From assembly GCA_964016885.1 (NCBI GenBank), contig OZ024744.1, forward strand, positions 33,914,001-33,978,000: a DNA stretch of 64,000 nucleotides. The letters run 5' to 3'. The position numbers and the translations under genes are program-made. Source of the stretch: Eledone cirrhosa (taxonomy: Eukaryota). The notes beneath the pieces were generated by a model that had not been told where the DNA came from, ran no database searches, and worked only from the letters and a program-made list of their open reading frames with translations. This document shows, one piece after another, positions 361 to 28,266 of the stretch. How positions within the stretch are numbered: position 1 is the first letter of the stretch; the number at the start of each line of letters is the position of its first letter.

Positions 361-676
361 ATATATTACATATTAGTTTATTTAACAATGACAACAAAGG
401 TAAGTTATTTTACATATCTCATTCATTGTTTTACGATCGTTTCGGAGGGTTGATCATATCGACATATTGACTAATCTATAGCAGTTAGAAAACTATTACT
501 ATCAGACATAATATATGGGTTCGATCATACCGTCTTCCGGAGTTCTGTAACTGCTATAGATCAGTCAATATATTAATATGATCAACACTCCGAAACCATA
601 GTAAAACAATCAATGAGATATGTGAAATAACTTGCCCTTGTTATCATTGTTAAATAAACTAATGGGTAATATATAT
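361..676. repeat. Fold-back (inverted repeat) element between TA tracts, probably a PLE 3'-end derivative
   Basis: 361-487 is the diverged reverse complement of 548-676, with a ~60-nt spacer. The arms carry CGAAACGATCGTA (HHR 3' half: GAAA, palindromic CGATCG, UA). A related fragment lies at ~5560-5630. Confidence 0.8.
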
Positions 677-1020
677 ATAGGCAAAAGGGATATTTAATTT
701 GTTGGTAATTCAACAAATATAAATGTTTATAACTGATTCAAAGCACTCAACAGTTTTCTGGGGTATAATATTCAATGATATTAAATAAATGGAAACTATA
801 TTTATAAAACTATATTTATTCTATTATATATATATTTCAAGGTTGAGGTATAGGGCTGGAAAAAAACGTTATTTTTAGAATCTAGGTAGATTTAAATAAT
901 TATTAGAATATATGTATGTATGTGTAAGAGGAAGAAAGAAAAAGAGAGAAAGAAGAGCTTGTATTTACGTTAATTTAAAATGTATATATATATATATATA
1001 TATATATATATATATATATA

Positions 1021-1477
1021 TTAGAATTGGAGCTCTGAAATAGCAATATATATATGGATGTATATATAATGTATTTTGCAATACACTTTATGCTTAATTA
1101 AAAGCATTTTGAAGACCGTATGCTATTGTTTTAGAGTAGTGACAAATTCACTTACTTTAATCTCAGCAAGCAGGGGAGATAAGCCGACAAGGCCTTGTTT
1201 CGCTTTTGTTGAAGCTTATCAAGGCTAACTACCCCTCCTGTCTACTGAGATTACTGATGTTATATTCTTATAGAATTCTAGTAAATAATCAGGAACTGAT
1301 TATACAGAGCGATTGTTGGTCAGGCAGAAATTAAAAATTAGAATTGGAGCTCTGAAATAGCAATATATATATATGGATGTATATATAATGTATTTTGCAA
1401 TACACTTTATGCTTAATTAAAAGCATTTTGAAGACCGTATGCTATTGTTTTAGAGTAGTGACAAATTCACTTACTTT
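1021..1477. repeat. ~137-bp direct repeats (pseudo-LTR-like) flanking a hammerhead-containing core
   Basis: 1021-1158 is near-identical to 1338-1477 (ttagaattggagctctg...cacttacttta). The unit sits between (TA)n tracts. Confidence 0.85.
1159..1252 (-). ncRNA. Type I hammerhead ribozyme, U3:A8 core variant
   Basis: Minus strand reads AGCC-UUGAUAA-GCUU(caacaa)AAGC-GAAA-CAAGGCCUUG-UC-GGCU. Stem III is palindromic and stem I is extended (aatctcag...ctgagatt). Confidence 0.8.
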
Positions 1478-1612
1478 ATATATATATATATAATATATAT
1501 ATATATATATATATATATATATATATATATATACATAAACACCATATCACATATACACATATATATCCACACATATATATACTGATGTTTGAAAACTTAA
1601 AATATATATATA

Positions 1613-1688
1613 TACGATATTAACAAATGGAAACTATATTTATAAAACCATATTTTTATAAATATAGTTTCCATTTGTTAATATCGTA
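1613..1688. repeat. Short perfect palindrome in a TA tract
   Basis: tacgatattaacaaatggaaactatatttataaaa, 6-nt loop, then its reverse complement. 1655-1776 is also a diverged inverted copy of ~680-815. Confidence 0.8.
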
Positions 1689-3154
1689 TGTTTACTCCAA
1701 ATACTTGTTGAGTGCTTTATATCAGTTATAAAAATATTTGCTTGTTGTATCCCAACAATTTAAATAGAACTTTTGCATATATATATATATATATATATAT
1801 ATATATATATATATATATATATATATATATAGGTTAACACAAATCAATATATTTGATAAACACAAATATCCTCATATTTATGTTTGTATTGTAAATGACC
1901 AAGTTAGCTAGATAGAAATATACTAATAATAATATTACAGTTTGCCTATCATGACTTAAGATAATACATCATAAATCAACAAAAACAAATTGTACTGGCA
2001 ATGGCCGTAGTGCTTGGACAAATTTAAATTTCAAAATCAAACCTGTTCCGTAGACAGGTTTAAACCTTAAAATCCAAATATGTTTCGAATAATGAAAAAG
2101 TGGAAGAAAATACCGCATTTTGATCTCCTCAGCAAGCACTATAAAAATTGGTATGTTCCACTTCAAAATATTTAGGAAGACTGTTTAGCGCACGAGGTAA
2201 CCTCATGCGGTTATCCAGTGTCTAGCTAGCCTCATACTCGTGCTGCTAGAAATAACAGCCGTTTGTATGGGGCTAAAATCAGCTCAACGAAGGAGCAGTG
2301 AAAAATCAATAATAATGAGTTCAAATCTCAGGCGATCATTTACAATGAAATAGCTCGAAGAAAGATTATTTCTGAGCCGTGTAATATAGGTTAACACAAA
2401 TCAATATATTTGATAAACACAAATATCCTCATATTTATGTTTATATTGTAAATGACCAAGTTAGCTAGATAGAAATATACTAATAATAATATTACAGTTC
2501 ACCTATCATGACTTAAGATAATACATCATAAATCAACAAAAACAAATTGTATTGGCAATGGCCGTAGTGCTTGGACAAATTTAAATTTCAAAATCAAACC
2601 TATACTATTTTCAAGGGAAACAATTCTGTTCATTATATATATATTGATTATCTCCCTTGGTGAGTGTGTGTCGGTTGAACATCTTAAAATTCAGACAGTA
2701 GCCACACAGATAATTAAAGCTACACACACTATAAGGAAGAAGACACATATAGGTGACACGTGCACACCACTTCATATCTATGTATCTATTTAATTACTCC
2801 TCATAACATTATATATTTTTTTTAACATTTTAGTGAGAGCCATCAATGCTAATTTAAATGAACTTATGTAAATGAATAAGAGAGAGAGAGAAAAAAGTAG
2901 GACCAACACAGTGCCTTATATCTTGCTCATATGTGACTGTTTATTGCTGGCTTTCTACGGCTGGATGCCCTTCCTAACGCCAACGTCATTTATTTATATA
3001 TATATTTATCCTTATCGAGCCCTCTTCGGATTTTAGTCTTCACATTTATTATTATTACTATATATATATATATAAAACCTTTGTTCGTACTGCCTCTGTT
3101 TTGTTCCCGTTCCATTTTTTACTATATATATATATAGCTTCAAGGCTTATGGGG

Positions 3155-25340: not shown

Positions 25341-25398
25341 ATATATATAAATAAAATAACAGGAGACTGGACTGGTGTAAATCCTTGAAAGGTTTATT

Positions 25399-25456
25399 AT
25401 ACTATGATCATTTCAATGACCGGGTTCCATATGAATCCGGTGATATCATCAGGTAT
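25399..25456 (-). ncRNA. Type I hammerhead ribozyme followed by AATAAA
   Basis: AUAC-CUGAUGA-uAUcACCGG...CCGGUcAUu-GAAA-UGAUCA-UA-GUAU-AAUAAA. Stem III is palindromic. Confidence 0.78.
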
Positions 25457-27507
25457 TTGAAAAATATAACAAAGGAATATGTAAAAATCATGGGTCCGAA
25501 AAATCGGAGACAGAGAGGACGACTGACCAACTAGCTGTCTTTACCTCAGCCAGTCGCCCTCAAAGTGATGGCAACTCAGTCTACTAATGACCATCTGGTG
25601 AGGGGGCGAAGGCTTATAATGCACTACCACCACTCCGTCAAAGAATAAAAAAGGGAAAGAAAGAAAGAAAAGAAGAAAGAAGAAAAAGAAAGAAGTCAGG
25701 CATGCTAGAAAACGCCGCGAAAAATATTCCAGAAAATCTATATTTTAACAAAGGCATATATAATGGGTGTCTGTATGGCCTAAAGTGTGAACAGAAAATT
25801 GGAACGTTAAATTTATGTTACGTGTTATAGGATGAAATTAAATTAAAAAATAATAAATTGAAAAATGATAAATTGAAAAATAAATTGAAAAAATTAAAAA
25901 ATTATTAGAAAATTAAAGGGTAAGGTGGCGGGATTTATTTAATGAACTTACAGAGAGAGTTTTATATGAAAAAGTTAATCTCGATAAGATATCAGGATGC
26001 GATCTGGAGTAAAGATTAAAGCCTTCGATTGTGAATCCCAGCCAGCACCTCCTAACCACGTGTCAGCCAGTTTCGAGTGGTATCGTCCATCGAAAGAAAT
26101 GGAAATTAATTTTTCCGAGTACTCTAGGAACGTAGCTACCTTAGGCCCCGGGTGTGCTAGCGGGAATTCTACAATTTCGACAGGCCATCGTCTATATCAA
26201 ACGAATACTATTAATTCACACATGAGGGGTTTATTTATGAGGGGTTTATTTACGTGCCAGTAGAGGCATGATACAGCTAACAATTATGCCTAAGCCTGGA
26301 GTTTATAGGTATAAGTATAATATGGCGGTCAAAACAGGCGGCGCGGCGGGCCCGGGGCAAAGCAATCCGCTCCGAGTAACTTCGTTTACCGAAAGAGAGG
26401 AAATTTATTTTTCCAAGCACTCAAGGAAGGCTGAAATTTCCGAGCGGCCATCGCGCAGCCGGGAAAAGCCACCACATCAATCGAAGGTAGCAAAACCCAA
26501 TAAAGAGTGCAAATAGACTATAATTATTTTAAAGTCCCAGTTAGTCCAGGTTATAAGTAGTGTGGTTCCTTGGTGGGTAGGGGCTATGAAAGGTACATAA
26601 TGACCTGAGTAAAGAAAGTTACAAATAAATAAAAGCAGGATACAGAGATAAAATACAAAGATAAAGAATACATTGATAAAAATACAATAATAAACTAATA
26701 AAAGTAGAAAGTAAAATACATAAATAAAACGTCTTCATAGCTAGGGTAGTGATGTAGTAAAACGGAAGTATATAAGAACATATCGGAGGAATCAGAGCAA
26801 AGGGGAAATACAATATAGATCAGGTTATAGTAAGATAATACAGGTTGTATATATAGATATAGAGGATGGAAGAGATGCAATGGTAACAGGTTATACCTAG
26901 TGTAAAGTTCGAGTCTCCGAATTCAGTGAGTCACAAAAAAGTCCAGAGGTATAGAGTAGAGAATTCAGTCAATACAATACATGCTTTAGTATAATACATA
27001 GAATTTTGTCGGAATCCGAATATTCCCGACAAGGAAGCATCATTGGATCGGGTGGGCGGTAGACAAAGCACAGAGCAGCCAAAATCCGAATGGTAAGTAG
27101 ATCAGTTAATCCCATGCTGGCAATAGCTGTACACTGAAGTCAGTGCCGCTGTTCAATATTACATTTGAAAGTGCTCAACATTATTGGAGCATTATTTCTT
27201 TAGGTTTGTTGGTTCACCACTTGATAGAATCGGTGTATATATATATAATTATTTAATTAATTAATTCCTCATTGAGCCACATTGTGAATGGTCGCAAAAA
27301 ACACACATATATATATATATATGACTTTGTCTAGTTTGTGTATATGTAAGGCAGTATTTGGCTGCGCTTTCTAGCAACAAGCCCACTCGCCGCAAGGCAC
27401 CAATCACATTCTTTCTGACTTGACCACTGCCACGTCACAGTTCTTAGCCATTTTGAATTCGTTTCTGGCGGGGATTATATAAGAAAAATCTTCGTCCAAG
27501 TGAGTTT

Positions 27508-27590
27508 GTTTCCTGATGATTTCGAAACTCGTGAATTTATCCTTGATCGGATATTTTCAAAATGCGAATGAAACCTCATGGGGTAGAAAC
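27508..27590 (+). ncRNA. Type I hammerhead ribozyme with long stem II loop
   Basis: GUUUC-CUGAUGA-uUUCG...CGAAu-GAAA-CCUC(au)GGGG-UA-GAAAC. Confidence 0.68.
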
Positions 27591-28002
27591 GTAACTTTGG
27601 TATGCTTATGTACATTTTTTCTTCTAACTTTGATTTTATACCTCATTCTGTATGGTTGACGATATATTTAATTGATTTCCACGTGCTATTAGAAATGGTG
27701 GGTAAATATTCTATAGTTGTTGATCGCGAATAGATAGCTGTAGTTTATTTATCTATTATTTTTTCATAGGTACCTTTTAATCTTATAGCCTGGTTTAATT
27801 GTTTTTTTGTGTGGTTGATTATGCTAATTGGGAGAGGAGATGGTGTATATATTTTATCAAATGATTCTATGAACATACTTTATTGTATATATATATATAT
27901 ATATATATATATATATATATATATATATATATATATATATATATATATATATATATATATATATATAGTTAAAAGAATAGAGGTGTAACACACAAGTTAT
28001 TA

Positions 28003-28266
28003 TATATTGGTAAACGGAATAGAAAATGCTGACAAATTGTTCACAGTTGAAAAATAGTTTAATTAGGAATAAAAGAGTATTAGTAATTGTATTGGTTAGT
28101 ATTCAGTTGTGGTTTTAAGTTTTTAAGAAATGCGCAACCGGTAAAAACTTAAAACCACAACTGAATACTAACCAATACAATTACTAATACTCTTTTATTC
28201 CTAATTAAACTATTTTTCAACTGTGAACAATTTGTCAGCATTTTCTATTCCGTTTACCAATATATA
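28003..28266. repeat. Perfect ~123-bp-arm fold-back (same family as 17584)
   Basis: Arms at 28003-28125 and 28142-28266. The spacer is agaaatgcgcaaccgg. Confidence 0.9.

Follow-up and report, generated by a model that had tools for sequence, protein, structure and literature searches.

Palindromic inserts in (TA)n tracts of Eledone cirrhosa are paired end repeats of Penelope-like elements, probably formed by twin priming on the RNA leader

A stretch of 64,000 nucleotides of the Eledone cirrhosa genome (assembly GCA_964016885.1, contig OZ024744.1, positions 33,914,001 to 33,978,000, forward strand; hereafter the window) carries ten short palindromic inserts. These are interpreted as head-to-head pairs of end repeats of Penelope-like elements (PLEs) in (TA)n, probably made by twin priming on an RNA leader that was copied up to its predicted capped start. 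Palindromes had been claimed at the ten places by an earlier reading of the letters of the window (the sequence-only reading). All ten were confirmed as true inverted repeats far above chance; arm scores ranged from 44 to 334, and the best of 30 shuffles per unit scored 18 to 30. Seven of the intervals had been drawn too short, as one arm extends into a family tail before the TA tract is reached. Corrected extents rest on comparison with other genomic copies of each family. Each insert in (TA)n comprises one long arm, which carries a tail of about 37-160 bases, and one short arm; this fixed pairing had been missed.

The units were sorted into eight repeat families, A to H, and are named below by the first position of the interval originally reported. 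Family A, a putative Hydra-type PLE, is represented by unit 4820 (corrected to 4719..5040), in which the long arm (4719-4915, 98-base tail) and the short arm (4915-5040) meet in loop II of a predicted hammerhead ribozyme; GAAA lies at 4971 and cleavage is predicted after 4982. Family B, also putatively of Hydra type, comprises units 24114 and 25141. Both intervals already included the tail, and the palindromic part is the right-hand 100-120 bases only. Unit 24114 (24114..24300) belongs to a second subtype, with the long arm and its tail of about 80 bases on the left, the short arm on the right and the joint close to an initiator-like site in loop II. In unit 25141 (25141..25340), the long arm (25141-25280) extends to position +2 relative to the predicted start and is followed by an 11-base spacer (25281-25291) and the short arm (25292-25340), with GAAA at 25298. 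The spacer resembles a hammerhead core other than that of family B; 10 of its 11 bases match the core of the neighbouring family F insert near 24823; an insertion copied from adjacent DNA and a chance resemblance are both possible.

Family C, a PLE with a GIY-YIG nuclease, comprises units 17584 (corrected to 17548..17991) and 28003 (corrected to 27968..28262), each with the long arm on the left and a 37-base tail. Both arms of the former reach the place at which arms of this family accumulate 5' stops (termed the wall), here an initiator-like TCAGAT, and are separated by a short templated duplication. The long arm of the latter stops before the short arm does, and the arms are non-nested. In family D (unit 361, corrected to about 201..676), the long arm on the left has a tail of about 160 bases (201-360) and reaches the predicted hammerhead core; the short arm occupies 541-676, and the tail and the two ends recur in other copies. 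The short arm of family E (unit 5048, corrected to 5048..5392) lies on the left and spans the whole hammerhead, which has a mutated core near 5216-5228 on the minus strand; the long arm (5282-5392) has a tail of about 35 bases. Family F (unit 24518, corrected to 24434..25069) has a long arm at 24434-24633 with an 85-base tail and a short arm of about 435 bases that runs through an intact hammerhead motif (core 24824, GAAA 24869). In family G (unit 14697, given as 14632..14854), the left arm comprises the 3' half of the hammerhead and a probable tail, and the right arm is 40 bases long; the left edge is uncertain, the true start probably lying near 14632, with no second long copy seen. Family H (unit 1613, corrected to 1613..1778) has a short arm from 1613 to about 1654 and a long arm with a tail of about 90 bases to 1778, both stopping 3' of the predicted cleavage site.

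Families A, B and C, to which five of the ten units belong, are PLEs with a GIY-YIG nuclease and not miniature inverted-repeat transposable elements (MITEs). Their long copies extend upstream, contiguously with the repeat, into PLE reverse transcriptase (RT) thumb and GIY-YIG frames. Of the eight families, these three were linked to an open reading frame (ORF). A Pfam search matched GIY-YIG above the cutoff in family C (E=5.6e-06) and below it in family B (E=0.007). No Pfam RT match was obtained with the broken frames of the long copies of A, B and C, and RT was identified from motifs instead. A CxCX5C linker was read in the translations of A and B, and DKT in B; the DKT region of A was not recovered. 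Such a linker, DKT for DKG and (TA)n targets are listed for the Hydra clade in the available text of PMC8557442, and A and B would be Hydra-type PLEs by these translated motifs. Family C, with DKG and a CX4CxxC finger, looks Neptune-like on the same kind of evidence. The family A pattern gave 207 exact matches; with one mismatch allowed, those of B and C gave 12,258 and 4,112. Equal terminal inverted repeats (TIRs), a constant interior and a matched transposase would mark a MITE; the ends found here are unequal, the joints are variable and identical joints occur in either orientation. The retro origin proposed in the sequence-only reading, with PLE ends facing outward in (TA)n, was borne out in that the arms of A, B and C are PLE sequence and not the DNA-transposon TIRs that it had named as contrary evidence.

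In four full-length copies of family C (L286, L287, L294 and L298; clear in 4 of 25 loci), the sequence runs on past the tail and reaches the ORF's ATG after 31 bases, and CCAAT and CACGTG boxes lie upstream of the wall. Since the arm is continuous with the ATG in these copies, it is the 3' end of the pseudo-long terminal repeat (pLTR) and the 5' leader alike. For A and B, none of about 280 loci showed a tail leading into an ORF. The family C leader (L287:363-461, present in units 17584 and 28003) also contains an intron-like GT donor, a TACTAAC branch point and a pyrimidine-rich AG acceptor, signals that recall the retained intron of Penelope. Within the tails of A, B, C and F, a YRCTC-like motif lies a few bases past the short end in several families, and folding gives local hairpins. 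In front of one family A copy (L105), the 45 bases that surround the ribozyme core and the wall recur as about eleven inverted repeats in tandem.

Breakpoints were curated by hand in the first-listed exact-match (young) copies on contigs C1-C4. Counts were made with 3'-anchored pattern searches; a similarity-ranked search was dropped as biased towards copies spanning the query. For family A, the first 100 listed matches fell at 92 loci, 8 of them matched on both strands, and represented 90 insertions after two duplicated loci were dropped. Two sites, +40 and +138 (98 bases apart), account to within 3 bases for the ends of 89 of these 100 arms. Two fixed ends were likewise found in B, C, D, E, F and H and are probable in G. 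Raw reads from three other individuals have loose TA ends at exactly two places in family C, L287:488 and 525. The two ends are paired: among 47 family A inserts with two family-end arms (three inserts whose partner has no family end were omitted), 45 were long plus short, one long-long and one short-short, against an expectation of 49% long plus short calculated from 40 single arms (23 long, 17 short; p=3e-12). At loci chosen by the joint alone and scored by hand, exactly one arm was tailed in 22 of 23 for B and 19 of 20 for C, and two in none; one locus per set was left uncalled. As short ends occur alone (the 17 single arms above), the short site is a priming site in its own right. In the family A pairs the short arm extends further 5' than the long arm in 29 of 45, with no overlap in 9. 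A fold-back copy of one cDNA cannot yield such non-nested arms without later deletion. In family B, the short start site is a second place where stops of long arms cluster, 10 of 68 lying no more than 12 bases from it. The arms of one insert often share locus-private variants (e.g. L312, L334 and L342), and a TA match of 3-5 bases with the target was seen at both C ends and at the short ends of A, B and D.

At their 5' ends, the arms stop at family-specific walls. For family A, the 36 bases that adjoin stem I on its upstream side collect the stops of 59 of the 78 arms still at risk, a rate of 3.5 per 100 arm-bases. Through the ribozyme the rate is 0.37-0.52, and the predicted cleavage site, with a margin of 1 base, is the start of no arm among 137. 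Stops in family B were counted in 70 tail-anchored loci: 29 of 41 arms stop within -2 to +7 of the A in TTAGTC, inside loop II. A further 15 of 56 stop over stems II-III, where the rate is 1.0 per 100 arm-bases (+8 to +37) versus about 0.2 just downstream, and some stalling at these stems is possible; one of 57 long arms stops within 4 bases of the predicted cleavage site. For family C, 16 of 27 arms stop near TCAGAT (counted by hand). Both arms are at the wall in 247 joint loci of this family, and the same joint is found in 34 of the first 50 listed. Relative to the ribozyme, the wall lies upstream in A and within loop II in B; in C it precedes a doubtful ribozyme by 50-70 bases. Strand-switch joints in raw reads or contigs of other individuals fall at the wall in 11 of the 13 shown for B and all 4 shown for C. 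Raw-read depth across the C wall shows a modest rise only. A step in depth at the B wall was rejected as evidence, since many molecules end at L152:1655, a possible TTAA cut site of reduced-representation libraries. The walls of A, B and C resemble initiator elements. An internal initiator/downstream promoter element (Inr/DPE) promoter with an intron shortly downstream is described for Penelope in the available text of PMC2377424.

Joints of family B were also examined for bases added at the wall. Both arms lie at +1 with 0-5 bases between them at 503 loci. A C:G pair abuts +1 in 27 of the first 50: a single-base spacer is C/G in 20 (A/T in 1), C-W-G occurs in 5 (G-W-C in 0), and 2 more spacers start with C. 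In read-through copies the base at -1 is T in 98 of the 100 listed, C in 2 and G in none; the extra G at the B wall is therefore non-genomic. On the arm's own strand, 12 ends carry an extra G and none an extra C, with four joints read as templated duplications set aside. The G lies on the long arm in 9 and on the short arm in 10 of 19 single-G loci, and sometimes on both arms; this equal distribution indicates that it arose repeatedly and not from a master hairpin. An extra G opposite the cap is known from other retroelements. Our literature searches found no paper for a cap-derived G at retroelement 5' ends.

A type I hammerhead pattern was found in at least one copy of A, B (with a U3 core), D, E, G and H, and in F by direct reading of other copies. 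It was missed in B copy L212, D copies L250 and L252 (D copy L257 has it), E copy L147 and the E and F copies in the window. Family C has only a minimal, poorly paired candidate, with stems of 3/1/1 bp. An Rfam scan of the window gave no gathering-level hammerhead, only chance microRNA-like matches and one weak hammerhead match outside the units. A first, strict pattern failed to detect the motifs of the ten units, because the copies in the window are halved or mutated. The palindrome axis had been said to lie in or beside the hammerhead core. At least one joint end falls within the hammerhead span in five of ten units (361, 4820, 14697, 24114 and 25141), but in the others it is 15-25 bases 3' of the predicted cleavage site (1613) or at the family wall (17584), or the whole motif lies in the spacer (5048 and 24518). 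The arms of 4820, 24114 and 25141 do, as stated there, keep the GAAA/stem III/cleavage half only. The left, long arm of 28003 likewise ends at the TA of a GTA, but the hammerhead there is the minimal one just described, and the GTA is also a possible splice donor. Stopping of cDNA synthesis at a structured or cleaved hammerhead, the explanation then offered, disagrees with the flat stop rate through the A ribozyme and with the single B long arm near the cleavage site. That the B wall happens to fall in loop II is what was taken for a hammerhead-linked axis. The hammerhead would be a bystander within the same 100-250 bases. Further hammerhead-like cores occur in other repeat families outside the ten units, at 1169-1236, 4426-4602, 14408-14584 and 23316-23360.

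Twin priming would proceed as follows. The nuclease would cut both strands of the (TA)n target, and one cut end would prime at the long site of the RNA leader and the other at the short site. Both cDNAs would run toward the predicted cap, often right to the start, and their ends would be joined bluntly or by microhomology; loss of one cDNA would leave a one-armed copy. The wall would be the transcription start and the non-genomic G a copied RNA cap. Action of the enzyme on both strands is presumed by analogy with the PLE protein of PMC11167929, as far as its available text goes. Shared private variants suggest that one RNA molecule may serve both primers. A wider claim, to which only somewhat better than even chances are given, is that PLEs necessarily insert by twin priming, at a fixed pair of sites within the 5' leader of a capped transcript of sense orientation, that inverted pLTRs and one-sided tails are both cDNAs of one event, and that most copies are front-end stubs whose joint marks the start to the base, with the cap G. 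This would apply across PLE clades and independently of the hammerhead.

Several observations weigh against twin priming up to a capped start. The wall of family A is 36 bases wide and AT-rich, and joints there use microhomology. The extra G is clear only in family B and was not seen in A; in family C a genomic C precedes the wall, so that the test is blind there, and one supportive joint was found in the 50 listed. With the four joints set aside above kept in, the polarity in B becomes 12 to 4. The stop peak of B long arms at the short start site lies in TA-rich sequence and includes one-armed copies. Central deletions of the palindrome after insertion could convert nested to non-nested arms. 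Shared private variants fit one RNA template but fit fold-back copying or later arm conversion equally well. Microhomology with the target may help to set the ends, unlike in the in vitro report, to judge from the available text of PMC11167929.

In fold-back self-priming, a cDNA begun at the long site would reach the RNA start, fold and be copied back to a TA match, and central deletions would make the arms uneven. The private variants common to both arms and the short ends at TA matches are as this would predict. The available text of PMC3846280 proposes self-priming on an antisense template for PLE palindromic junctions, unlike the sense-RNA twin priming favoured here, and that of PMC11371274 reports snap-back for R2. 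We nevertheless regard it as unlikely, as 29 of 45 family A inserts are non-nested, 9 of them with no overlap, many B short arms reach +1 to +3 while the long partner stops at +19 to +63, the extra G is on the short arm as often as on the long and sometimes on both, and short ends exist without a partner. A smaller chance is given to the model of the sequence-only reading, in which two PLE ends are placed tail-out and the RT stalls at the folded hammerhead or runs off cleaved RNA. Five of the ten joints in the window touch the hammerhead span, the B wall lies in loop II and the B stop rate is raised over stems II and III (1.0 vs about 0.2 per 100 arm-bases). However, stops do not peak at the cleavage site, which accounts for none of 137 arms in A and, with a margin of 4 bases, for 1 of 57 long arms in B; the A wall is outside a ribozyme through which stops are flat, the C wall is equally sharp with no convincing ribozyme, and the extra G is left unexplained. 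The cleavage form of this model is largely refuted by the stop profiles.

Small RNA circles or multimers made by the ribozyme, as in retrozymes, and copied from two points are a shade less probable again as general templates. In family F (copies L361 and L347) the tail is followed directly by what lies at the distal end of the short arm, and an intact hammerhead motif is present; given this tail-to-head continuity, the family may form a unit of about 530 bases, tandem or circular, and such a template is plausible for family F only. By contrast, the long copies of A, B and C lead upstream into coding frames, and those of C also downstream into the ORF; the walls of these three families fall elsewhere than at the cleavage site, and circular RNA would be uncapped. 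Amplification of MITEs or of a few master hairpins as units is scarcely credible. The palindromic shape, the TA target, the thousands of copies and the one joint that dominates family C (34 of 50 listed) would suit it, but the arms are PLE sequence, joints vary by locus, identical joints occur in either orientation to the long arm (9:10 in B, 9:10 in C) and about 40% of copies are one-armed. An assembly or library fold-back artefact is just as remote: the arms differ in sequence and length in a family-specific manner, and both family ends, as well as strand-switch joints at the walls, recur in raw reads of three other individuals.

Other repeats in the window include further copies of the same families. 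Family B is found as one arm with a long end at 8280..8422 (plus strand) and as a short end at 18024..18082 (minus strand). A two-armed family A copy with non-overlapping arms (21780..21935) adjoins the 3' end of a long interspersed nuclear element (LINE) with broken AP-endonuclease and RT frames (18563-21800), which interrupts the hairpin; a 5'-truncated GIY-YIG PLE follows (21900-22900). A larger two-armed insert at 15651-17535 has arms of about 780 bases with 96-98% identity around a GIY-YIG frame (16425-16805, minus strand); its right arm continues into a tail also present in L147, so that the long-short layout recurs on a larger scale. Nested direct and inverted repeats occupy 1827-4410 (2304-3014 vs 3709-4410, 97%) and contain five 36-base tandem units that end in a 62-base palindrome (3155-3336). 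This region looks like repeated template slipping in another family. Broken transposase frames at 28870-30110 (minus strand) are presumably Tigger/pogo-like by their motifs. Broken Rep-helicase frames of Helitron-like type, which have a tandem repeat of 69 bases at their start, lie at 36356-41094. In the ORF list, broken LTR-retrotransposon gag, protease, RT and integrase-like frames appear on both strands at 45142-48701 and 58315-63895.

The proposed mechanism has a parallel in L1. Ostertag and Kazazian (2001) reportedly described twin priming in which two target strands prime on the element RNA to give an inverted piece, as proposed here. The L1 pieces are, however, said to be non-overlapping and the second site random; the present inserts use two fixed sites and mostly have overlapping arms, hence the palindrome.

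Among endonuclease-containing (EN+) PLEs, an inverted 5'-truncated copy, a tail at one end only, (TA)n targets, a pLTR hammerhead and GIY-YIG C-terminal to RT are already described in the available text of PMC8557442 and PMC3846280, and they are shared here, the hammerhead as a candidate motif. The inserts of E. cirrhosa differ in being mostly leader-only stubs of 150-650 bases with tails of 37-160 rather than 30-40 bases, and the available text of those papers does not describe long-short pairing, non-nested arms or a joint G. Families A and B share with the Hydra clade of PMC8557442 the linker, predicted canonical or U3-variant hammerheads and (TA)n, and B also DKT, whereas family C, with DKG and its CX4CxxC finger, makes the same hairpins. 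The minimal PLE hammerheads of PMC4209133, in its available text, are type I with a short palindromic stem III, a U3-A8 variant and opposite-strand motif pairs 100-700 bases apart, like the candidate motifs here. These pairs were thus known too; in family B, however, the predicted start cuts the motif in loop II, so that stubs keep the 3' half only. In vitro, the Poseidon_Ac PLE protein cuts and extends both strands, begins reverse transcription at two internal sites, which define the tail, and uses uncleaved RNA, ribozyme cleavage being dispensable (PMC11167929, available text); the same features are proposed here. That text makes no link to inverted inserts or a capped start, and its start sites are inside the ORF without target homology, whereas those of family C lie 31 and 68 bases before the ATG and have short TA matches. 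Literature searches, with the supplements of PMC8557442 and PMC11167929 outside their range, found no report of obligate long-short pairing, non-nested arms or a cap-like joint G. The elements are of a known kind, and the mechanism, which was not found in print, appears well supported on the evidence of DNA alone.

The origin of PLE inverted repeats and one-sided tails is called undefined in the available text of PMC8557442. Stubs of the kind described here are liable to be mis-annotated as MITEs or as microRNA-like hairpins, and the hairpins are a possible, putative source of double-stranded RNA or substrate for editing. PLEs are the closest retroelement relatives of telomerase, and thousands of natural joints provide a base-level record of how they insert. 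This record points to a sense, capped RNA and to priming from both strands.

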